A stretch of 64,000 nucleotides of DNA, taken from contig JBAZSF010000004.1 in assembly GCA_041662525.1 (NCBI GenBank), positions 1,190 through 65,189 of the forward strand, in the 5' to 3' direction. The number at the start of each line of letters is the position of its first letter. The first letter of the stretch is position 1. Shown here piece after piece: positions 1 through 41,684 of the stretch. Origin of the DNA: Minisyncoccota bacterium (GTDB lineage: Bacteria > Patescibacteriota > Minisyncoccia > Phycocordibacterales > UBA9973). The translations under genes and the position numbers were made by a program. The notes under the pieces were generated by a model. It worked only from the letters and a program-made list of their open reading frames with translations, made no database searches and was not told the DNA's origin.

Positions 1-359
1 AAGCATTTCCTCTTTTGGCAGGTTTGTTTGATGGCATTTCAATCCGAGTGCCTGTACCGGCTGGATCAATCGTCGATGTTACTTTTATTGCAAAAAGAGA
101 TACAAGTGTTGAAGAAATAAATGCAATACTGAAAAAAGCATCGAGCTTAGATAGATGGAAAAATATTTTTTCAGTTACAGATGAGCCCCTCGTGTCCTCT
201 GATATTTTAGGAAGCAAATATGCTTCAATAGTTGACCTAGCTATGACACGCGTAGTGGGGGGTAATCTGGTAAAAGTAATGGCTTGGTATGATAATGAAA
301 TGGGGTATACGCATACTTTGGTAGACCATGTTGTTAAAACAGGGAGTACAATATTATAA
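1..359 (+). CDS. gap: Glyceraldehyde-3-phosphate dehydrogenase, C-terminal part; the 5' end lies outside the window
   Basis: The translation has the GAPDH C-terminal signature (…VMAWYDNEMGYTHTLVDHV) and the upstream RVPVP…VDVTF catalytic-domain motifs. The frame is open to position 1. Confidence 0.85.
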   Translation, partial: AFPLLAGLFDGISIRVPVPAGSIVDVTFIAKRDTSVEEINAILKKASSLDRWKNIFSVTDEPLVSSDILGSKYASIVDLAMTRVVGGNLVKVMAWYDNEMGYTHTLVDHVVKTGSTIL

Positions 360-373
360 ATAATAAAAAACAT

Positions 374-862
374 ATGAAAATTTACATTGGGACAGATCAC
401 GCAGGGTATGTATTAAAGGAGGCACTTGTAGTTTTTTTAAAAGGGGAGGGTCATGAAGTAGTAGATGAAGGTGCATATACTTATGATGAAGATGATGATT
501 ATCCAGATTTTATTTCTAAAGTCGCTCGAGCAGTTTCTAGAGATGTGCATGATTCGACAAAAGTGAGAGGTATTATTTTGGGTGGTACCGGACAAGGAGA
601 GGCGATAGTAGCCAATAGATTTCCTCATGTCAGGGCTATAGTTTATTATGGTAAAGCAACTCCCATAGTAGAAGCTGAGTCTGGTATTCTTCATAGATCA
701 AGGGAGCACAATGATGCAAATGTTCTTTCTTTGGGTGCTCGATATTTTACTGAAGCTGATCTGGTGGAAATTGTTAATTTTTGGCTGAATGCTCCTTATA
801 GTGGTGGGGAAAGACATGTTCGTCGTTTGGCAAAAATAGATCAAATAGACATAAATAAATAA
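374..862 (+). CDS. rpiB: Ribose-5-phosphate isomerase B (RpiB/LacAB family)
   Basis: N-terminal MKIYIGTDHAGY…LK motif typical of RpiB. About 160 aa. Sits next to rpe and tkt. Confidence 0.85.
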   Translation: MKIYIGTDHAGYVLKEALVVFLKGEGHEVVDEGAYTYDEDDDYPDFISKVARAVSRDVHDSTKVRGIILGGTGQGEAIVANRFPHVRAIVYYGKATPIVEAESGILHRSREHNDANVLSLGARYFTEADLVEIVNFWLNAPYSGGERHVRRLAKIDQIDINK

Positions 863-870
863 AAAAAATT

Positions 871-1566
871 ATGACTGAAATTATTCCGGCAATTTTGGAA
901 GAAAATTATGAAGATTTGAAGAACAAAATTGCCTTAGTGCGAGGGGTCGTACCTCTCGTGCAAATAGATTTTTGTGATGGAATTTTTGTACCTACTCGTA
1001 CTTGGCCATTTTCTTCTGGAGGAGGGGCAGATGAACATTTCCAGAGAATTCAAAATGAACAAGAAGGAATGCCTTTTTGGGAAGATGTTGATTTTGAACT
1101 TGATCTGATGGTGGCTGATGCCGTAGAGAATTTTGATATTTATACTAAGCTCGGACCGAAAAGAATAATATTTCATATTGAAGCGGTGGGGGAATTTGAA
1201 AATTTTAAGCATTTTTTAGAAGGGATCGATATGTATATCAGAGATAGTATTGAAATAGGGGTGGCTATAAATCCAACCACTTCCCTTGAGCAAATTTTTC
1301 CTTTGATTTCTTGTATAGATTTTGTGCAATGTATGGGAAACGATAAAATTGGGCACAGAGGAATTCTACTCGATGAACAGGTTTATGAAAAAATTAAGGT
1401 TTTGAGAGAAAAATATCCTGATTTTCCGATTGCCGTTGATATAGGTGTTAATAGATCAACAGCACCATTGTTGGTTGAGAGCGGAGCAACAAAACTCGTG
1501 GCTGGTTCAGCTATTTTTAAAACCGATGATATTATTGGAACGATAGAAGATTTTGAGAATTTATAG
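871..1566 (+). CDS. rpe: Ribulose-phosphate 3-epimerase
   Basis: IIPAILE…VQIDFCDG…MGNDKIGHRG…AGSAIF motifs of the Rpe TIM barrel. Confidence 0.88.
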   Translation: MTEIIPAILEENYEDLKNKIALVRGVVPLVQIDFCDGIFVPTRTWPFSSGGGADEHFQRIQNEQEGMPFWEDVDFELDLMVADAVENFDIYTKLGPKRIIFHIEAVGEFENFKHFLEGIDMYIRDSIEIGVAINPTTSLEQIFPLISCIDFVQCMGNDKIGHRGILLDEQVYEKIKVLREKYPDFPIAVDIGVNRSTAPLLVESGATKLVAGSAIFKTDDIIGTIEDFENL

Positions 1567-9875: not shown

Positions 9876-11708
9876 ATGGATTTAAAACACATTAGAAATT
9901 TTAGTATTATCGCTCACATTGACCATGGTAAAAGTACTTTGGCAGACAGAATGCTTGAAATTACACATACTATAGAAACACGCAAAATGCGGGATCAAGT
10001 ATTGGATTCTATGGACCTGGAGCGTGAAAGAGGAATTACTATCAAAATGCAACCAGTTCGAATGGAGTATGTTTTCGAAGGCGAAAATTATATTTTAAAT
10101 CTTATTGATACCCCTGGGCATATAGATTTTTCTTATGAAGTGTCTAGAGCTCTGAAGGCAGTAGAGGGGTCTATTTTACTTGTTGATTCAACTCAAGGAG
10201 TGCAAGCACAAACGCTTACTACTCTTGCTATGGCTCGCGATAGTGGACTCAAGATTATTCCTGTACTTTCTAAAATTGATTCTCCATTATCTAGGGTTGA
10301 TGAGGTTAAAGAGGAAGTGGTGGAACTTTTGAATTGTGATCCAGATGAAATTTTATTAGTTTCTGGGCGTACAGGAGAAGGAGTACCCGAGCTTTTAAAA
10401 GAAGTCATAAAACGAATTTCAGAACCAAAAGAAACTATTTCGGACGTTGGACGTCCGGATTTCCGAGGTCCAACGTCCGAAATATTACGCGCATTAGTTT
10501 TTGATTTTAAATATTCAAATCATAGAGGGGTGATAGTTTTTGTGCGAGTTTTTGATGGAAAAGTTGCTAAGGGTGATAGTTTAAATTTTGCAGTTTCTGG
10601 TGAGAAATTTACCGCTCTCGAAGTTGGGACTTTTTCTCCAGAAGAAACTCCTCGAGATTTTCTTTATCCCGGAGATACGGGTTATATTGTTACTGGTATA
10701 AAGAAACCCGGCATAGCATCTGTCGGAGATACTATTACGATGTCTAAAAATCCATTGGAAGCTTTTGAGGGCTATATGCAACCATTGCCTGTAGTGTGGG
10801 CGAGCGTATTTCCAGAAGACGCAGATGATTTTGCCGAATTAAAACTTGCCTTAGGAAAATTAAAACTATCTGATTCAGCCTTTTCACATGAAGAAGAATC
10901 CTCTGGGTCTTTAGGTAGAGGATTTAGGTGTGGATTTTTAGGAATGCTTCATTTGGAAATTATTACCGAGAGACTAAAAAGAGAATTTAATTTAGAACTT
11001 GTCGTTACTACTCCATCTATAACTTATGAAGTAACAAACAAACATGGTAAAAAAGAAAAAATTTATTCCCCATATTTTTTTCCAGATGATGGAAATATAG
11101 AAGATGTGCATGAGCCTTGGGTGGATGCAAAAATAATTAGCCCGTCTTTTTACCTAGGAGCTATTATGCAACTTCTTTTTGACCATGAGGCAGAAGTAGG
11201 AGAGACGGATAATTTTGGGGACAATAGATCATCAATTAGTGTCAAAATGCCTTTGCGTGAATTGATGCGAAATTTCTTTGATGAATTAAAAAGTGTTTCT
11301 TCAGGTTATGCTTCCATTTCTTATAAATTAAATGAAAATCGTGAAGCGAGTGTGACTAGATTAGACATTTTGGTGGCGGATGAAATAGTGCCAGCTTTTT
11401 CTAGAGTTGTTTCTAAAAAGAGAGCAGAAGTTGAAGCAGAAAATGCAGTTTTAAAATTAGAAGGTTTGCTTCCTAGACAGATGTTTACTTTGAAAATTCA
11501 AGGTCGCGCTTTTGGGCGCATTATTTCTTCTCGTACTCTTTCAGGTATGAAAAAAGATGTGACTCAACATATGTATGGAGGAGATATTACTCGAAAAATG
11601 AAACTTCGAGAGAAACAAAAGAAAGGCAAAAAGAAAATGAAAGAGCGCGGACGCGTTAATATTCCACAAGATGTATTCCTAAAAATGATGCGATCAGGGG
11701 AAAAGTAG
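9876..11708 (+). CDS. lepA: Elongation factor 4 (LepA)
   Basis: NFSIIAHIDHGKSTLADR G1 motif, DTPGHIDF, and the LepA-specific C-terminal domain. Contains an in-frame GC-rich palindromic insert at 10436-10484. Confidence 0.95.
   Translation: MDLKHIRNFSIIAHIDHGKSTLADRMLEITHTIETRKMRDQVLDSMDLERERGITIKMQPVRMEYVFEGENYILNLIDTPGHIDFSYEVSRALKAVEGSILLVDSTQGVQAQTLTTLAMARDSGLKIIPVLSKIDSPLSRVDEVKEEVVELLNCDPDEILLVSGRTGEGVPELLKEVIKRISEPKETISDVGRPDFRGPTSEILRALVFDFKYSNHRGVIVFVRVFDGKVAKGDSLNFAVSGEKFTALEVGTFSPEETPRDFLYPGDTGYIVTGIKKPGIASVGDTITMSKNPLEAFEGYMQPLPVVWASVFPEDADDFAELKLALGKLKLSDSAFSHEEESSGSLGRGFRCGFLGMLHLEIITERLKREFNLELVVTTPSITYEVTNKHGKKEKIYSPYFFPDDGNIEDVHEPWVDAKIISPSFYLGAIMQLLFDHEAEVGETDNFGDNRSSISVKMPLRELMRNFFDELKSVSSGYASISYKLNENREASVTRLDILVADEIVPAFSRVVSKKRAEVEAENAVLKLEGLLPRQMFTLKIQGRAFGRIISSRTLSGMKKDVTQHMYGGDITRKMKLREKQKKGKKKMKERGRVNIPQDVFLKMMRSGEK
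10436..10484. repeat. GC-rich perfect palindrome embedded in-frame in lepA
   Basis: tatttcggacgttggac…gtccaacgtccgaaata: 17-bp arms with a 15-nt spacer. GC-rich against an AT-rich background. Encodes …SDVGRPDFRGPTSE…. Confidence 0.7.
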
Positions 11709-13438: not shown

Positions 13439-14788
13439 ATGACCAAGCATTGGATCAAAAATTTTGATCAGTTGGCTACGACTGAAAATAGGAAAAATGC
13501 GTTAAAAATAGTAGAAGCTGGTTTTGATGCTATAAATACAGAGGAAGTAATAAAAAACAAGATAAAACTTGAAGATAATATTTTATTTATTAATAACGAA
13601 AGTTTCGATTTAAATAAATTCAAAAACATAAAAGTTGTTGGTTTTGGTAAAGATTCCATGGATGGCGCCTTAGCAATTGAGAAAATTTTAGGTTCTAAGA
13701 TAAAGGAAGGTGCTGTCATCGGAATTACTAAAGTAGATTGCACACACATTGAAACTTTTACAGGTACACATCCTAGGCCAAGCGAGGTAAATGTTACTGC
13801 AGGAAAAAAGATATATGAAATGATTAAAGATTCTAATACTGATGATTTGATTATTGTTCTTGTTTCTGGTGGAGGATCATCTCTTTTGTGTTACCCTGAG
13901 AGTGAAAATACAGAAGGTTCAAAACTCTATGATGCATTTTTGGGATCTGGTAAAACAATCATTGAGATGAATACTATTAGAAAACATTTGTCTCTCTTGA
14001 AAGGGGGTGGTTTAGCAAAGTTAGCTTACCCAGCTACCGTTATCGGTCTTATTTTTTCTGATGTTCCCGGAAATGATTTTGAGGATGTTGCCTCTGGGGC
14101 AACTTATAAGGATGAAACCACTATAGATGATGCGAAAAAAATTATTACCGAGAATAATTTAGGAGAATTTGATTTGATTGAAACTCCCAAAGAAGATAAA
14201 TATTTTGAAAAAGTTCATAATTTTGTTTTAGTTTCAAACAAAACTGCAGTGGAAGCAATGGCGAAAAAAGCGGAAGAATTTAATTTAGAAACTAATATTG
14301 TTTCAACTGAATTATATGATGAAATAAAAGAAGCGCTTAAAAAAATATTTTCCAGCAACAAAACCAATGAAGGATTTTCTCAGGTCCTCGGTTCTCCGGG
14401 TCCCTATCCCGGCCAGACCATTCAAAAACCCTTCATTGGTTTTGTTAAACTTGCAGCTGGTGAGCCAAGTATTGAAGTCACCAAAGAAGGAAGCAAGGGG
14501 GGTAGGAATTTACATATGGGATTAGAAGCTATAAAAATGAAATTAGTGGATGATGATTCTGTTTTTATAGCTTTTGCTTCAGATGGTATGGACAATAGCG
14601 ATGTGGCTGGAGCGATAATAGATAAAGATACTTTAGATAAAGTCGAAAAACTTGGTTTGGATGTTGATGATTATATAGAAAGATTTGATTCTTATGATTT
14701 TTTTCAAAAAACTGGGGATGTGATTATTACTGGACCTACTGGCGCGAATGTTTCTGATTTGATGATTCTTTTAACTAAGAAAAATTAA
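13439..14788 (+). CDS. Glycerate 2-kinase (MOFRL/DUF4147 family)
   Basis: …LVSGGGSSLL… and …LKGGGLAKLA… motifs characteristic of MOFRL-family glycerate kinases. Confidence 0.72.
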   Translation: MTKHWIKNFDQLATTENRKNALKIVEAGFDAINTEEVIKNKIKLEDNILFINNESFDLNKFKNIKVVGFGKDSMDGALAIEKILGSKIKEGAVIGITKVDCTHIETFTGTHPRPSEVNVTAGKKIYEMIKDSNTDDLIIVLVSGGGSSLLCYPESENTEGSKLYDAFLGSGKTIIEMNTIRKHLSLLKGGGLAKLAYPATVIGLIFSDVPGNDFEDVASGATYKDETTIDDAKKIITENNLGEFDLIETPKEDKYFEKVHNFVLVSNKTAVEAMAKKAEEFNLETNIVSTELYDEIKEALKKIFSSNKTNEGFSQVLGSPGPYPGQTIQKPFIGFVKLAAGEPSIEVTKEGSKGGRNLHMGLEAIKMKLVDDDSVFIAFASDGMDNSDVAGAIIDKDTLDKVEKLGLDVDDYIERFDSYDFFQKTGDVIITGPTGANVSDLMILLTKKN

Positions 14789-23737: not shown

Positions 23738-24943
23738 TTAGAGCTTTAGATTACCAGTTGCTTTTACGTCATCTAATTTAGGAACTCTCTTTTTATTTTT
23801 TATATAATTTAAATATCCAGCGATACCGATCATTATAGAATTATCTCCCATAAGTTCTTTTGTGGGAAATAAGATTTTTATTTTTTTTCCGCCAGAGGCG
23901 GATCCGCCTAGGGCGGAGATTTCATTCTGTAAATGTTTATTAGCCACGACTCCTCCAGCAACGATAAGAGTTTTTATATTATATTTTTCTACAGCTTTTT
24001 TTGTTTTGTAAGTTAAACATTCGATAGCGGCGTTTTCAAATTCTAAAGCAATTTGTGCTTTTGTTTTTTGGTTGATTTTTTTGATACCACCTAAATCTCT
24101 TATCAAATACAAAACTGCTGTTTTGAGTCCAGAAAAAGAAAAATTAAAATCTTTAGTATATATCATTGGACGGGGGAGAGCTAAAGAAAAACTAATCTTT
24201 TTGGGGTTGCGTTCACAGGAGAAGCGAGAAACTCGTGCGGACTCAGCGCACATAATTTTCTGTTGAAAATTTGCTATGCTCGGCTCGCCAGCCTGCGCAA
24301 TGCTTCGCTCGCACGAGTTTCTCGCTTCTCCTGCCAATTTTGAAATCTGTGGTCCACCAGGATAAGGTAGATCAAGCATTCTGGCCACTTTATCGAAAGC
24401 TTCACCGACGGCATCGTCGAGTGTTTCCCCGATAATTTCATAATTCATAAATTTGTTAGAAAGTACTAATTGGGTGTGCCCGCCTGATACGAGCAACATC
24501 AGTATAGGTGTTTTTAATTTCTCTATTTTAAAAGTTCCCCTGCCTTTTCCAAAAACAGAAAGGATGTGTCCTTCCATATGGTTGACTGGTACTAAGGGTA
24601 CTTTCCATTTTTGCGAGAGCTCTTTGGCAAAAACGATCCCAGTCCAAAGAGACATTTCAAGTCCTGGACCATGAGTCACCATTATTGCGTCTATTGGTTT
24701 TTTATTTTTACTTAACTTAACTTTTTTCAAGCAGGCTTCTAATAAAATAGGCAGATTTTTTTCATGTTCCAGTTTTGCCAGTTTTGGAAAAACTCCGCCA
24801 TAGGGGATGTGAACATTGATTTGAGAATTTGAGCTGTTGGCTAAAACTTTAAAAGAAGCATTTGTAATGCCTCCTTTAGCTTCCATTATACTTATTGCTG
24901 TATCGTCGCAGGAAGTTTCGATGCTTAAAATTCTTATTGTCAT
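23738..24943 (-). CDS. tsaD: tRNA N6-adenosine threonylcarbamoyltransferase TsaD (Kae1/Gcp family)
   Basis: ILSIETSCDDTAISI N-terminus, …HMEGHIL… metal-binding motif, …FSFSGLKTAV…. Carries a ~40-aa in-frame insertion encoded by a GC-rich palindrome at 24216-24333. Confidence 0.88.
   Translation of the reverse strand: MTIRILSIETSCDDTAISIMEAKGGITNASFKVLANSSNSQINVHIPYGGVFPKLAKLEHEKNLPILLEACLKKVKLSKNKKPIDAIMVTHGPGLEMSLWTGIVFAKELSQKWKVPLVPVNHMEGHILSVFGKGRGTFKIEKLKTPILMLLVSGGHTQLVLSNKFMNYEIIGETLDDAVGEAFDKVARMLDLPYPGGPQISKLAGEARNSCERSIAQAGEPSIANFQQKIMCAESARVSRFSCERNPKKISFSLALPRPMIYTKDFNFSFSGLKTAVLYLIRDLGGIKKINQKTKAQIALEFENAAIECLTYKTKKAVEKYNIKTLIVAGGVVANKHLQNEISALGGSASGGKKIKILFPTKELMGDNSIMIGIAGYLNYIKNKKRVPKLDDVKATGNLKL
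24216..24333. repeat. GC-rich palindromic element inserted in-frame in tsaD
   Basis: Perfect 24-bp inverted repeats caggagaagcgagaaactcgtgcg / cgcacgagtttctcgcttctcctg flank a 70-bp core. The core contains ctcggctcgccagcct, a 15/16 match to the MITE core ctcggctcgacagcct. Confidence 0.7.
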
Positions 24944-29875: not shown

Positions 29876-29954
29876 GATTACTATTATACACTAGGTGTCA
29901 AATCTTTTAAAATAAAAAAAAGACGTCGGTATTCCATCCAATGGAATACCGACG

Positions 29955-30170
29955 TTAAAGAGAATGCATTATTACCACAGGTTCATTGCATATAAGGCAA
30001 GTTTTACCCGTTTTTATGAGAGATGTCTCGTAACAATTATGAGGTGGAAATTCCAATTTCCTCATACATGAACAACAGTGAGCGTAAAATCTCTCATTGT
30101 AAGAACGAATTGTTTGAGTGTCTGAACAACGAGCGCACTTGTTTTCCTCGTTCATAACCCCTCCTTTCAA
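29955..30170 (-). CDS. Small Cys-rich (zinc-ribbon-like) protein immediately downstream of ftsZ
   Basis: CxxC…CCxC…C…CxxC pattern in about 66-71 aa. Moderately GC-rich. The start is uncertain (MKGGVMNEEN…). Confidence 0.35.
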   Translation of the reverse strand: MKGGVMNEENKCARCSDTQTIRSYNERFYAHCCSCMRKLEFPPHNCYETSLIKTGKTCLICNEPVVIMHSL

Positions 30171-33792: not shown

Positions 33793-33795
33793 TTT

Positions 33796-33836
33796 TTAGG
33801 TGTTGGACACCGAGATTCCAGGTGTCCAACACCTAA
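33796..33836. terminator. Perfect 16-bp-arm palindrome between greA and lysS (terminator or protein-binding site)
   Basis: ttaggtgttggacacc-gagattcca-ggtgtccaacacctaa. Confidence 0.55.
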
Positions 33837-33853
33837 GAAAATAAATAATTATA

Positions 33854-35752
33854 ATGTCCTCAATTGATGAAATTAGAGACGTCAGAATAAAAAAACTTGA
33901 ACTTCTAAAAAAGAGGGGTCATGAAGCGTATCCAGCAGATTCTAAAAGAGAAATCTCTCTCAAGGACGCCGTTGATGATTTCGAGAATTTAGAAAAGAGC
34001 AGAGAAGAAAAATGGATTGCCGGCAGGGTGATGTCTATCCGTGGACAAGGGGCAATTATTTTCATTACTTTAAATGATGGCACTGGAACTTTTCAAGGAC
34101 TTCTTAAAAAAGATGTTTTGGGTGATGAAAAGTTTGATTTTTGGAATGAGGTGGTAGACATTGGGGATTTTGTAGAAATACAAGGAACTTTTTTTACGAC
34201 CAAAAGAGGAGAGAAAACTTTAGAAGCCAGAGACTGGCGCATGCTTTCAAAAAGTCTGCGTCCGCTTCCAGAAAAATGGCATGGACTAGTGGATGTAGAA
34301 GAAAGATTTCGAAAAAGATATTTGGATATACTTTTTAATCCTGAAGTTAAGGAAATAGTGGAGAAAAAAGCTATTTTTTGGAATGCCGTTAGAGAGTTTC
34401 ATTTGAAGCATGGTTTTTTAGAAGTGGAAACACCTGTTTTAGAAAATACTACCGGAGGTGCTGATGCCACACCATTCAAAACTCATCATAATGCTTTAGA
34501 CTTAGATGTATATCTCAGAATATCAGCTGGAGAACTTTGGCAGAAAAAATTAATGGCGGCTGGAATTCCTAAAACTTTTGAAATAGGGAGAATCTTCCGT
34601 AATGAAGGAATGTCCCCAGAACATTTACAAGATTACACTCAGTGTGAAGCGTATTGGGCTTATGCCAACTATAAAGATATGTATAAGTTTTTACAGGAAT
34701 GCTATCAGTATGTGGCAGAGAAAACTTTTGGCACTTTGAAGTTTAAAATAAATAATTTTGATGTTGATCTTGGTAAAGAATGGCCTCTTATAGATTACAC
34801 TGAGGAAATAGAAAAACAGACCAAGATAAATATAGAGAAGGCGAGTGAAAAAGAAATTGAATCTAAATTGAAAGAATTAGGTGTGGAATATGAGGCAGAC
34901 AATAAGGCGCGCCTTATTGATTCTTTGTGGAAATACTGTCGTAAGAATATTGGTGGACCAGCTATTTTAATAAATGAACCAAAGATTACTTCTCCTTTGT
35001 CAAAATCTTCTCCTCTTAATCCTAATTTTACAGAACGCTTTCATTTCATCATTGCTGGGTCAGAGGTTGGGCAAGGTTATAGTGAGCTAAATGACCCTAT
35101 TGATCAGTATGAAAGATTTGATAGTCAAGAAAAATTGCGTAAAGCGGGGGACACAGAAGCTCAAATGATGGATAATGATTTCGTTGAAATGCTAGAGCAT
35201 GGAATGCCTCCTACTACTGGTCATGGTTTTAGTGAACGACTTTTTAGTTTCTTGATGAATAAACCGATTCGTGATACTCAAATATTTCCTTTTATGAAGC
35301 CGAAAGATGCAGAAAAGAAAACAGAAAATAAAAAAGGTATGATTGTGGTAGCTGTATTAAATAAAGAAGCCAAAATGGAACCATGGCAAGAATTAAACAC
35401 CGTTGCTCATTTGAATGCGGCTTTTGGTGCTAGAGTGGGGAGGGGAGATTTGTTTTATAGAGATACGATAACTTCCAAAGATAATCATAAAATAAAATTA
35501 AATATCAAAAATGCAATAATGATAAAAACTGCGCCATCTGGCAAAGTGTTGCGTGAATTATTAGAGAAGGCAAAAAAAGCAGAACTCGAAGTGGATGAAT
35601 TTATAAGAGAAATGGTAGAAACAACCAGCGATAAAAAAATTATTGAAATAACCGCTTCTAAAAATTTTGATGAAATTGAACATCTCGGTATTTTAATTTA
35701 TGGACCAAAAAATATCGTTGAGGATTTAACTTCGGATTTTAAGTTATACTAA
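33854..35752 (+). CDS. lysS: Lysyl-tRNA synthetase (class II) with a ~130-aa C-terminal extension of unknown function
   Basis: OB-fold anticodon-binding N-terminus. Class II motifs (…FRNEGMSPEHL…, …GHGFSERLF…). The core ends at about 500 aa; an extra domain (…MIVVAVLNKEAKMEPWQELNTVAHLNAAFGARVGRG…) follows. Confidence 0.88.
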   Translation: MSSIDEIRDVRIKKLELLKKRGHEAYPADSKREISLKDAVDDFENLEKSREEKWIAGRVMSIRGQGAIIFITLNDGTGTFQGLLKKDVLGDEKFDFWNEVVDIGDFVEIQGTFFTTKRGEKTLEARDWRMLSKSLRPLPEKWHGLVDVEERFRKRYLDILFNPEVKEIVEKKAIFWNAVREFHLKHGFLEVETPVLENTTGGADATPFKTHHNALDLDVYLRISAGELWQKKLMAAGIPKTFEIGRIFRNEGMSPEHLQDYTQCEAYWAYANYKDMYKFLQECYQYVAEKTFGTLKFKINNFDVDLGKEWPLIDYTEEIEKQTKINIEKASEKEIESKLKELGVEYEADNKARLIDSLWKYCRKNIGGPAILINEPKITSPLSKSSPLNPNFTERFHFIIAGSEVGQGYSELNDPIDQYERFDSQEKLRKAGDTEAQMMDNDFVEMLEHGMPPTTGHGFSERLFSFLMNKPIRDTQIFPFMKPKDAEKKTENKKGMIVVAVLNKEAKMEPWQELNTVAHLNAAFGARVGRGDLFYRDTITSKDNHKIKLNIKNAIMIKTAPSGKVLRELLEKAKKAELEVDEFIREMVETTSDKKIIEITASKNFDEIEHLGILIYGPKNIVEDLTSDFKLY

Positions 35753-37276: not shown

Positions 37277-38191
37277 ATGCAAAGCATACACAAGACAGTT
37301 CTTTTAAATGAAACAATAGATGGTTTGAACTTAAGGTCAGATTCTGTCGTTTTGGATTGCACTTTTGGAGGGGGCGGACATAGTATGGAAGTTTTAAAAA
37401 GATTTCCAAAAGCGAAAATCATTGCGCTTGATCAAGATGCTGCTACTTTTGAAAAAGCGAAAGGAAAGTTCAAAGGATTAGAGAACAGAATTACTTTTGT
37501 AAATGGTAATTTTAGAGATTTAGACAAAGTTTTTTCCCCGAAGCCGGGCTTAGGGGAATCAGGGACGGGAGAGATAGACGGAATTATTTTTGACTTAGGT
37601 TTGAGTTCTGACCAATTAGAAAATTCTGGACGAGGATTTTCCTTCATGAAAGATGAGCCATTACTCATGACCATGAAAGAAAACCCTCGGGTAGAAGACC
37701 TTACTGCACAAGACATCGTAAACACATGGAGTGAAAAAAGTTTAGCTGATATTATCTACGGCTACGGAGAAGAAAGATATAGCCGAAAGATAGCAAAGGT
37801 GATAGTAGAAGCAAGAGAGAAGGGGAAGATAGAGACAACTTTTGATCTAGTAAAGATAATTAGCGGGTCAGTTCCGGCAGGATACAGAAGAGGAAGATTG
37901 CATTTTGCCACTAGAACATTTCAAGCATTACGGATAGCGGTCAATGATGAGTTAGGGGTCTTGAAAGATGGGTTAGAAAAAGGATTTAATCAGTTGAAAA
38001 TTGGGGGCAGGATGTCGGTGATTTCATTTCATAGTTTAGAAGACAGGATAGTAAAAAGATTTTATAAAGAATTAGAAAAAGAGGAAAAAGGAAGATTAAT
38101 AAATAAGAAACCCATTTTAGAAAGTGAAAAAGAATTAAAAGATAATCCTCGGTCGAGAAGCGCAAAATTAAGAATTTTAGAAAAATTATGA
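37277..38191 (+). CDS. rsmH: 16S rRNA (cytosine1402-N4)-methyltransferase RsmH (MraW)
   Basis: HKTVLLNETIDGL…DCTFGGGGHS SAM-binding motif. Position after mraZ. Confidence 0.9.
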   Translation: MQSIHKTVLLNETIDGLNLRSDSVVLDCTFGGGGHSMEVLKRFPKAKIIALDQDAATFEKAKGKFKGLENRITFVNGNFRDLDKVFSPKPGLGESGTGEIDGIIFDLGLSSDQLENSGRGFSFMKDEPLLMTMKENPRVEDLTAQDIVNTWSEKSLADIIYGYGEERYSRKIAKVIVEAREKGKIETTFDLVKIISGSVPAGYRRGRLHFATRTFQALRIAVNDELGVLKDGLEKGFNQLKIGGRMSVISFHSLEDRIVKRFYKELEKEEKGRLINKKPILESEKELKDNPRSRSAKLRILEKL

Positions 38192-40343: not shown

Positions 40344-41684
40344 ATGAAAACAACTTTTAGAAACGCAATAGTTTATATTTTAAAAATTGAGTCGCAACTC
40401 GTGCTTTTTAGATATAAGCCAAAAATAATAGCAGTTACTGGATCAGTCGGTAAGACTTCTACTAAAGATGCAGTCTATGCTGTGCTTTCAAAGATTTCCC
40501 ATGTTCGTAAAAGTGAAAAAAGTTTTAATAGCGAAATAGGTTTGCCCCTTACTATTTTAGGTATTCCTAATGGATGGAATAATCTTTTCGTTTGGCTCTT
40601 AAATATATTAAAAGGCTTGTGGCTTTTTTTAAATCCTTTTGGGCCTAAATATCCAAAATGGCTCGTACTTGAAGTCGGGATAGGAAAGCCAGGAGACATG
40701 AAAAAAACTGCCTCTTGGATTAAAACTGACGCTGTTATTATGACTGCCATAGGGGATACTCCTTCTCATGTTGAATTCTTTCTCTCCCATAAACATCTCG
40801 TAGAAGAAAAAAGTCAACTTATAAAAACCTTAAAAAAAGACGGAATTTTAGTATTGAATGCAGACGACAAAATGATTCTTAATATGAAAGAAAAAAGCAA
40901 ACACTATACCATCACATATGGATTTAAAGAAGGCGCTGATGTGATAGGCTCTGGTGATACTATTTTTTACAATAAAGACAATGAACCAGAAGGGGTAATC
41001 TTTAGAGTAGACGAAGGGGGCAGCAGTTTACCCGTCGTGATAGAAAAAGTTTTTGGACGAAACCATATTTATGCTGCACTCTCGGCTTTGGCATTATCTT
41101 TTGGTTTAAAGTTCAATATGTTGGCAGCAGTGGATGCGCTTAAAGATTATGATGTGGCACCTGGGCGGATGAGATTACACAAAGGGATAAATGATAGTTT
41201 GATTATTGATGATACATACAATTCTTCGCCTTTTGCTTGTGAGTTTGCATTAAAGACTTTAGGTGAAATGAAAGGGTCAGGAAGAAAAATTGCTATCTTG
41301 GGTGATATGTTAGAACTCGGCAAACATACTATTGAAGCTCATAAAAATATTGGGAAAATTGCTAAAGATAATATAGATATTTTAATTGTGGTTGGACAAA
41401 GGGCAGAAAAAATAAAAGAAGGAGCGATAGAAGCAGGAATGAGAGAAAAAAACCCGCCTCGCGTCGACGAGTCTTCGCGAGTCGAGGCGGGTATTTTTCA
41501 ATTTTTAAATTCTAATGAAGCAGGGGATTTTATAAAAACTTTTGTAGAGAAAAATGATATTGTGCTAGTGAAAGGATCCCAAGGTATGCGAATGGAGCGA
41601 GTAGTAGGAGCGATACTTTTAGATCAAGAAAATAAATATAAGTTGTTAGTGCGCCAAGAGCCAGAGTGGCTAGAGAAAAAATAA
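40344..41684 (+). CDS. murF: Mur ligase, probably UDP-MurNAc-tripeptide--D-Ala-D-Ala ligase MurF
   Basis: IIAVTGSVGKTSTKD P-loop, Mur ligase middle and C-terminal domains, 446 aa. Carries an in-frame GC-rich hairpin at 41446-41498. Confidence 0.65.
   Translation: MKTTFRNAIVYILKIESQLVLFRYKPKIIAVTGSVGKTSTKDAVYAVLSKISHVRKSEKSFNSEIGLPLTILGIPNGWNNLFVWLLNILKGLWLFLNPFGPKYPKWLVLEVGIGKPGDMKKTASWIKTDAVIMTAIGDTPSHVEFFLSHKHLVEEKSQLIKTLKKDGILVLNADDKMILNMKEKSKHYTITYGFKEGADVIGSGDTIFYNKDNEPEGVIFRVDEGGSSLPVVIEKVFGRNHIYAALSALALSFGLKFNMLAAVDALKDYDVAPGRMRLHKGINDSLIIDDTYNSSPFACEFALKTLGEMKGSGRKIAILGDMLELGKHTIEAHKNIGKIAKDNIDILIVVGQRAEKIKEGAIEAGMREKNPPRVDESSRVEAGIFQFLNSNEAGDFIKTFVEKNDIVLVKGSQGMRMERVVGAILLDQENKYKLLVRQEPEWLEKK
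41446..41498. repeat. Terminator-shaped GC-rich palindrome inside the murF coding sequence
   Basis: aaaaaaacccgcctcg-cgtcgacgagtcttcgcgagt-cgaggcgggtattttt encodes …REKNPPRVDESSRVEAGIF… in frame. Confidence 0.65.

Follow-up and report, generated by a model that had tools for sequence, protein, structure and literature searches.

An in-frame palindromic repeat family in lepA and other genes of Paceibacteria-type genomes: probable REPIN-type mobile elements

A stretch of 64,000 nt of DNA from a Minisyncoccota bacterium (assembly GCA_041662525.1, contig JBAZSF010000004.1, positions 1,190 to 65,189 of the forward strand; in the following "the window") contains a perfect palindrome at positions 10436-10484, inside lepA, the gene coding for elongation factor 4 (EF4). 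This palindrome is an insertion relative to most LepA orthologues. It belongs to a dispersed family of repeats found in unrelated genes and spacers, and hairpin units of the family sequence flank genes for Y1 (HUH) transposases that resemble RAYTs (REP-associated tyrosine transposases, where REP stands for repetitive extragenic palindromic). The lepA palindrome is thus probably a non-autonomous mobile element of the REPIN type (REP doublet forming a hairpin) of Paceibacteria-type members of the candidate phyla radiation (CPR). It would be translated into a surface loop that the protein tolerates, as is the case for the Rickettsia palindromic elements (RPEs).

A palindrome in the reading frame of lepA

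The palindromic, REPIN-like element (10436..10484, no strand assigned) has the sequence TATTTCGGACGTTGGAC-GTCCGGATTTCCGAG-GTCCAACGTCCGAAATA. Its arms of 17 nt are fully complementary, lie 15 nt apart, and grow to 20 nt if one mismatch is allowed. In the window, the arm 17-mer occurs at two sites only, both within this palindrome, and two arm matches appeared in 0 of 100 dinucleotide-preserving shuffles. Folded as RNA, the palindrome reaches a predicted -34.3 kcal/mol (z = -6.75, 200 shuffles). The G+C content of the palindrome is 51%, and that of its 39-nt core, counted from the sequence, is 64%, compared to 36.8% in the surrounding 2 kb. The host gene (9876..11708, plus strand) codes for a protein of 610 amino acids with the Pfam domain set of LepA/EF4 (GTP_EFTU, GTP_EFTU_D2, EFG_C, and LepA_C), and its open reading frame (ORF) continues across the element. 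Sixteen codons (10437..10484, plus strand), corresponding to LepA residues 188-203, encode ISDVGRPDFRGPTSEI within the peptide ...KETISDVGRPDFRGPTSEILR... and replace a 6-residue linker of relatives with an empty site. As read directly from the sequence, all six frames of the lepA copy are free of stop codons. An earlier reading of the window from its letters and ORFs (the sequence-only reading) had described a perfect palindrome with 17-nt arms, G+C-rich in an AT-rich gene and encoding this peptide; the arms, the composition, and the codons are as it stated.

The element site is located between the G domain (Pfam, residues 4-181) and domain II (residues 205-288) of LepA. The LepA of the window is 100% identical to that of a metagenome-assembled genome (MAG) of Candidatus Paceibacterota. 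In an alignment of the 120 closest proteins (P0001-P0120, 83-94% identity), 30 carry an insert at this site and 90 carry none. LepA with an empty site is mostly about 600 amino acids long and reads ...EPKETY-xGDNx-LRALVFD, typically with a 6-residue linker, and EF4 of T. thermophilus (PDB 5imq) has 12 residues fewer at the aligned position. On the nucleotide level, an empty lepA allele (L004) reads GAAACC-TACCAAGGTGATAATAAT-TTACGG and thus has 18 nt in place of the 48 nt of the window. A more perfect copy of the palindrome, ATTTCGGACGTTGGACGTCAAGATTTCGGACGTCCAACGTCCGAAATT, with an intact right unit (GGACGTCCAACGTCC), is found in the lepA of L002, whose product shares 88% amino acid identity with that of the window. 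The closest relative, L001 (94% amino acid identity), contains a decayed remnant in which 29 of 45 element bases are kept, the whole gene being 87% identical.

The inserts of the 30 LepA relatives represent at least three unrelated palindromic types, and only about 10 of the 120 proteins carry an element of the family described below, named here after its GTTGGAC core. The lepA of L085 has the variant palindrome GGGTGTTGGACACCC at the element site, and different palindromes occupy it in L086 (CCTACCTCCCCCTAC/GTAGGGGGAGG) and L088 (ACAGGTATCCGGTAC-N12-GTACCGGATACCTGT). In a neighbor-joining tree of LepA, alleles with and without the element are interleaved. This tree is poorly resolved at 83-94% identity, so that the interleaving shows turnover but not its mechanism. 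An AlphaFold model of LepA suggests that the insert may be coil (residues 186-201, pLDDT below 50). Because this model is poor (mean pLDDT 56.6), the placement of the insert relies on the alignment to the solved EF4 instead. LepA of this lineage also has five indel hot spots among P0001-P0120, located after residues 67, 121-125, 188, 390, and 448. The inserts at these hot spots are rich in Gly, Pro, and Ser (for example PSTGSGQAG and LPGRQAG) and may also be derived from repeats.

Copies in unrelated genes and spacers

The motif GTTGGAC-N15-GTCCAAC occurs twice in the window, compared to 0.01 expected occurrences. The second match (33802-33830) is part of a 47-nt intergenic palindrome (33793..33839, no strand assigned), TTAGGTGT-TGG-ACACC ... 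GGTGT-CCA-ACACCTAA, which directly follows the stop codon of greA and precedes lysS. The genomes of 185,579 species, one per species, were scanned with the pattern GTTGGACRYC-N9-GRNGTCCAAC, in which the GTTGGAC core is fixed. Of the 79 loci retrieved, about 60 are located in CPR MAGs of the Nomurabacteria/Paceibacterota type and share flanks beyond the pattern; the other approximately 19 lack the family flanks and are consistent with chance expectation. A search of the collected loci with nhmmer added 18 non-exact matches, most of which are additional copies. Short contigs from another sample, obtained on extending the source contig, contained no new copies. Three core variants can be distinguished, namely v1 (GGACGTTGGACGTCC), v2 (with the GGGTGTTGGACACCC core, to which the intergenic copy of the window belongs), and the mixed v3. 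Several MAGs harbor 3-8 copies with the exact core, eight being the maximum, and the copies within one MAG are mostly of one variant. Hence the arms of the lepA palindrome are not unique: besides the second copy in the window, CPR genomes contain about 60 others, most of which lie in frame in unrelated genes. The proposal of the sequence-only reading, that a class of palindromes colonizes coding sequences without breaking the frame, is supported by these dispersed copies together with the absence of the segment from most LepA orthologues.

A copy was counted as intragenic if it lies at least 15 amino acids inside an ORF of at least 150 amino acids. By this definition, 44 of 62 copies (71%) are situated deep in ORFs, four are close to the end of one, and the remaining 14 lie in short ORFs or between genes. 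The host genes comprise topA, trxB, purH, pyrF, mnmA, dnaG, gatA, gatB, rnj, purL, guaA, parB, rsmH, mreC, and genes for a class-V aminotransferase, ATP synthase, an ABC transporter, and an LTD protein. In 37 of the 44 intragenic copies (84%), and likewise in the lepA copy, the codon phase is GAC-GTT-GGA-CGT. The resulting peptides are xSDVGRPxxGRPTSEx for v1 and SGVGHxxxGCPTPE for v2. If orthologues are grouped, about 24 sites are in this main phase and about five in other phases. Filled and empty alleles exist for further hosts. The site in topA is empty in L033 (…VIKEHEELP…) and is filled by v1 in two loci (L067 and L012) and by v2 in two others (L049 and L083). The trxB site is empty in the window and filled in L008, L015, and L056. 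In rsmH, L037 carries a family element, and the rsmH of the window (37277..38191) has a different, small and imperfect palindrome (TTCCCCGAAGCC/GGGCTTAGGGGAA, 37533-37575) at the same position of the protein.

Two observations concern the genomes that contain the family. In L016 (2404-7699), five copies are located in the spacers of a highly expressed ribosomal protein operon (L6, S8, L5, L14, S17, L16, L22, and S19). Moreover, some of the MAGs are titled "uncultured Candidatus Saccharibacteria" (L011-L013, L022, L023, L033, L053, L054, L061, L071, and others), but their ATP synthase and TopA are 86-91% identical to those of Paceibacterota MAGs. These titles are therefore probably wrong, and the family may be confined to Paceibacteria.

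Unit anatomy and covariation

Each arm of the lepA palindrome is itself a small hairpin, so that the element consists of two REP-like units in inverted arrangement and thus resembles a REPIN. The left unit (10441..10457, plus strand), as read from the sequence, is CGGACGT-TGG-ACGTCCG, with a 7-bp stem and a 3-nt loop. The inverted right unit (10463..10479, plus strand) is partly degenerate and reads CCGAGGT-CCA-ACGTCCG, compared to the family consensus CGGACGT-CCA-ACGTCCG. The corresponding unit of v2 is GGGTGT-TGG-ACACCC. With two inverted 17-nt units only a few bases apart, two folds are open to the DNA or RNA, a single long hairpin or two small ones. Both folds were evaluated in an alignment of 60 copies, the lepA element and 59 others, against 500 shuffles. 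The seven core pairs are preset by the search pattern and uninformative in this respect. In the long hairpin, 87.3% of the alignment cells are paired and 13 of 22 pairs show compensatory changes; for the two small hairpins these values are 91.1% and 8 of 14. None of the 500 shuffles reached the observed covariation score of either fold, and shifting one partner abolished the signal. In the outer stem, columns 3-5 and 45-47 pair in about 67-77% of the copies, with four or more pair types.

Link to RAYT-like transposases

Y1_Tnp (IS200-like) genes were found through a weak match to a RAYT of E. coli, for which an approximate sequence served as query, and then confirmed by Pfam. A similarly approximate TnpA sequence of IS608 gave no match. 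These genes are present in 4 of the approximately 60 element loci, within 8 kb of an element copy. In L037 and L077 they score above the Pfam cut-off, and those in L031 and L008 are homologous to them according to tblastn. Each of the four genes has its own hairpins on both sides. In L031, these are copies of GTAGACGT-TAA-ACGTCTAC, equivalent to the v1 arm except for the loop. In addition, one of the LepA relatives with the element (P0014) is encoded on a contig with a Y1_Tnp gene 6.4 kb upstream of lepA. The sole NCBIfam match of the Y1 proteins is the REP-associated tyrosine transposase (NF047646 equivalog), with scores of 29.5-67.6 bits and thus below the curated cut-off of 80.

When metagenomes were scanned with an alignment of the Y1 proteins, at least 563 relatives were retrieved, and the best 80 loci (L091-L170, 305 kb) were examined. 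In most of these, matching hairpins with 3-nt loops lie on both sides of the RAYT-like gene. In one of the loci, L122, the RAYT-like gene (334..969) is preceded by CTTGGGTGTTGGACACCTAAG about 20 nt upstream of its start and followed by CTTAGGTGTTGGACACCCAAG directly after its stop. This flanking hairpin, CTT[GA]GGTGT-TGG-ACACC[TC]AAG, is the v2 unit or arm and is identical over 16 of 16 nt to the left arm of the intergenic copy in the window. The 13-mer GGTGTTGGACACC was found nowhere else in the 305 kb of RAYT-like loci. In many RAYT-like genes of L091-L170, the hairpin that flanks the gene also recurs in frame within the transposase ORF itself, usually near residues 55-70 or 150-160 (for example L096 2661-2697, L103 314-352, L109 2457-2504, and L136 2675-2707).

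Origin and maintenance of the elements

If the lepA palindrome is a REPIN-type element, a RAYT-like transposase would move its copies in trans, via single-stranded DNA and the recognition of hairpins, and the family would owe its dispersal to this enzyme. Gene-dense genomes offer little spacer DNA, so that most insertions would fall in genes. The surviving copies would be those that add a multiple of three bases, are free of stop codons, and reside in a permissive surface loop. The bias in codon phase may then reflect which of the three possible peptides suits a loop. The lepA copy would be translated as a 16-residue loop rich in Gly, Pro, Ser, and Asp in the linker that joins the G domain to domain II, where it would be tolerated rather than needed.

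Several points weigh against this reading. Many of the 62 copies are orthologous and hence not independent, which makes the effective sample smaller, and the fixed GTTGGAC of the scan pattern accounts in part for the conservation of the core among the sampled copies. The NF047646 scores remain below the cut-off. The 64-kb window contains no transposase gene (at the position of the Y1_Tnp gene of a relative it has a hydrolase-like ORF), and among the RAYT-like genes none flanked by the exact v1 unit was found, but only one with v2 (L122) and one with the v1-like unit with the TAA loop (L031). Transposition of the element is a step that we infer. Filled and empty sites differ by a net gain of 30 nt with four to six codons replaced, a difference that does not mark out boundaries, a target site, or a target duplication. 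Furthermore, the same sites are filled in several divergent genomes, and they hold different variants in different genomes. The elements of the window and L002 are identical at 44 of 48 positions, whereas the third codon positions of the two lepA genes are only 47% identical. A simple history of insertion and decay does not predict this contrast. The outer stems vary and yet are complementary, and sometimes they take in host codons. These misfits suggest re-insertion, conversion between copies, recombinational exchange of alleles, and/or correction of arms by template switching, processes that are indistinguishable here.

A more far-reaching scenario, which we regard as possible but tentative, is that the REPIN-type elements of CPR bacteria have shifted to a mainly intragenic and translated lifestyle in gene-dense genomes. 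Their sequence would be shaped for this lifestyle. They would repeatedly fill, and be replaced in, a recurring set of permissive loops in essential proteins (LepA, TopA, TrxB, and RsmH), and would even reside in frame within their own RAYT-like genes. The lack of stop codons in all six frames of the lepA copy, and the 84% of intragenic copies in the phase that encodes a Gly/Pro/Ser-rich loop, give the sequence the appearance of being shaped for translation. If this scenario were true, the elements would continually supply CPR proteins with loop insertions and might also serve as local hot spots of recombination or conversion. This could explain a conservation of the element far above that of neighboring synonymous sites.

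Some of the same misfits are what one would expect if the hairpin were a selected functional signal at each site. It might act as an mRNA structure that causes ribosome pausing between the LepA domains or affects mRNA decay, or as a DNA or RNA site for a host factor, and the family would then reflect shared function instead of mobility. The high identity of the elements of the window and L002 relative to third codon positions, the filled sites in divergent genomes, the compensatory changes that preserve stem pairing, and the copies in ribosomal protein operon spacers, which are reminiscent of REPs with proposed RNA roles, are all in line with such a signal. However, a signal needed at this site should not be missing from 90 of the 120 closest LepA, be represented by this family in only about 10, have decayed in the closest relative L001, or be replaced by unrelated palindromes in other relatives. 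In 46 intragenic copies, G:U and A:C mismatches on the sense strand are almost equally frequent (24 and 23), and the lack of a G:U excess speaks against selection that acts on the fold of the mRNA in particular. Rfam gave no match either: at the gathering threshold the whole window yielded tRNAs only, and at E≤10 the element yielded only sub-threshold generic hairpin matches to miRNA precursors. Therefore, we consider a site-specific signal unlikely.

Still less probable is that the palindrome arose or is kept in situ by template switching during replication (quasipalindrome correction) in a weakly constrained segment that codes for a loop, with no mobile element involved. This mechanism would readily produce outer stems that differ between copies and remain complementary, a right outer stem in topA that coincides in part with conserved codons of the host gene (GAA TTx, ELP motif), and unrelated palindromes at the same permissive sites. 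It may well contribute to the matching of arms and the extension of stems, but it cannot account for the same sequence of about 30-40 nt in dozens of unrelated genes and spacers of several genomes, or for identical units that flank transposase genes. A chance inverted repeat or an assembly artefact has only its origin from a MAG in its favor. The shuffles never reproduced the palindrome, the same insert-bearing LepA is recorded on two contigs from NCBI and JGI, and related copies occur in many independent assemblies (JGI, ENA, NCBI, and Logan); this explanation can practically be dismissed.

Three other assignments were considered and rejected. The attC sites of integrons have the core order 5'-RYYYAAC ... 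GTTRRRY-3' and extrahelical bases, and they separate cassettes adjacent to intI. The degenerate cores are matched by GTTGGAC and GTCCAAC, but the order of these is reversed on both strands and the copies reside inside genes. An intrinsic terminator, which is a G+C-rich hairpin with a T run behind it at the end of a gene, is inconsistent with the location of the lepA copy in the middle of a gene, and the intergenic copy was not called as a terminator-like site. Phage as a vector would have been indicated by two matches in viral contigs, but these lack the family flanks and look like chance.

Other palindromes in the window

The sequence-only reading had grouped hairpins in tsaD and murF with the one in lepA. 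They are indeed insertions and/or recurrent, but they belong to different sequence families. In tsaD (minus strand, 23738..24943), a palindromic insert of 118 nt (24216-24333) with perfect arms of 24 nt and a predicted folding energy of -72.8 kcal/mol adds 37 amino acids relative to the TsaD of L002. Its inner part recurs in L060, L044, L075, and L072 and thus represents another repeat family. The same gene contains a second, small palindrome (TCCGCCAGAGGCGGATC/GATCCGCCTAGGGCGGA, 23888-23917) that encodes an extra segment of the GGSASGGK type, similar sequences being present in L078, L053, and L060. The G+C-rich hairpin in the murF-like gene (40344..41684) is also in frame (41445-41499). It recurs with 95-97% identity in L033 and in a leuS-like gene of L002, which makes it a member of yet another dispersed family. 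A fourth gene, coding for a glycerate kinase-like protein (DUF4147/MOFRL, 13439..14788), has an in-frame, hairpin-forming insert of 90 nt (25 amino acids, 14357-14446), which is shared by the orthologues of L001 and L086 and absent from L004.

Two further features of the window lie outside this group. Between ftsZ and trxB, a perfect hairpin with 15-nt arms (29923-29955) precedes a run of T on the minus strand and resembles an ordinary terminator after ftsZ. The lysyl-tRNA synthetase gene (33854..35752) codes for a C-terminal DUF2000 domain (residues 499-632).

Implications and comparison with known systems

The family provides a tangible source for a part of the small, lineage-specific insertions in housekeeping proteins of CPR bacteria (Patescibacteria), and those who annotate such proteins or predict their structures should bear in mind that these loops can consist of mobile element sequence. 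It would also extend the biology of REPINs and RAYTs to the Patescibacteria. A description of such elements in this phylum was not found in the literature, which is no proof of its absence.

With respect to the IS200/IS605 elements (IS608), the likeness consists in a Y1 HUH gene flanked by subterminal hairpins. The lepA element differs in being gene-free, and the CPR Y1 proteins comprise about 210-230 amino acids, those of IS200 (TnpA) roughly 130-150. Coding hairpins are also found in AT-rich, compact organellar genomes, such as the GC clusters of yeast mitochondria, which are hairpin-forming repeats in coding sequence. We know of no relation to a Y1 transposase for these clusters or for the coding palindromes in mitochondria of Nematomorpha. 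The latter likewise are hairpin-forming inverted repeats in the coding sequence of compact, AT-rich genomes, but they are organellar and much longer, with up to 284 bp (PMC6649704).

RPEs are palindromes inserted in frame and translated, and the classic ones have about 150 bp (Ogata et al., 2000, as summarized in PMC10969869 and PMC3733652). The CPR family shares with them the in-frame location in many unrelated housekeeping genes of a reduced genome, at positions tolerated by the fold. As far as these accounts describe the RPEs, which form the sequence families 1-10, the two are set apart by length (about 150 versus 49 bp) and host (alphaproteobacterial Rickettsia versus Paceibacterota). Moreover, no transposase link is known for the RPEs, and the CGTC-type RPE-4 and RPE-6 lack a dedicated transposase (PMC3733652), whereas the CPR family has a RAYT-like link. 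Intragenic REPs of the GTAG and CGTC types, as single units and dimers, reside inside genes often involved in replication or repair and encode 20-30 amino acids (Di Nocera et al., 2013; PMC3733652). The CPR family, too, has copies in dnaG and topA. CGTC REPs have an unpaired terminal CGTC, a stem of 8-9 bp starting with A/T, a loop of 4-5 nt, and a CCA tail (PMC3733652). The CPR unit does not belong to them, with its G/C-rich 7-bp stem, its 3-nt loop (TGG/CCA), and a v2 variant that lacks CGTC.

The closest counterpart is the REPIN/REP-RAYT system of Pseudomonas and E. coli. REPINs were defined as inverted REP doublets with two alternative folds (Bertels and Rainey, 2011; PMC3116915), and the recognition of hairpins as single-stranded DNA, shown for IS200/IS605, has been proposed for them (PMC3116915). 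The CPR elements likewise are inverted doublets of short palindromic units with a short spacer, which can fold as a single long hairpin or as two small ones (a "clover"), with compensatory changes in the stems. They are present in multiple copies whose variants are largely genome-specific, and a Y1 (IS200-like) gene flanked by the unit exists (v2 in L122 and v1-like in L031, the exact v1 not having been found). The two systems differ in that REPINs are usually extragenic, whereas the CPR family is to 71% intragenic and in frame. The REP unit has a conserved GTAG tag at one end, whereas the lepA unit begins with TTCGG and lacks GTAG; GTAG/CTAC occur only in some copies (L083 and L033) and in the hairpins of the L031 gene. 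In addition, the CPR units are shorter than REP units (7-bp stem, 3-nt loop), the copy number appears low (1-8 exact-core copies per MAG), and the Y1 proteins are distant RAYT relatives with a sub-equivalog score in a different host phylum, the Patescibacteria. Anatomy and transposase association thus place the family with the REP/REPIN-RAYT systems, minus the extragenic location, the GTAG tag, and the equivalog RAYT score. As a REP-type element that is mostly intragenic, like the RPEs, but has a candidate transposase partner, it makes the spread of coding palindromes directly testable.

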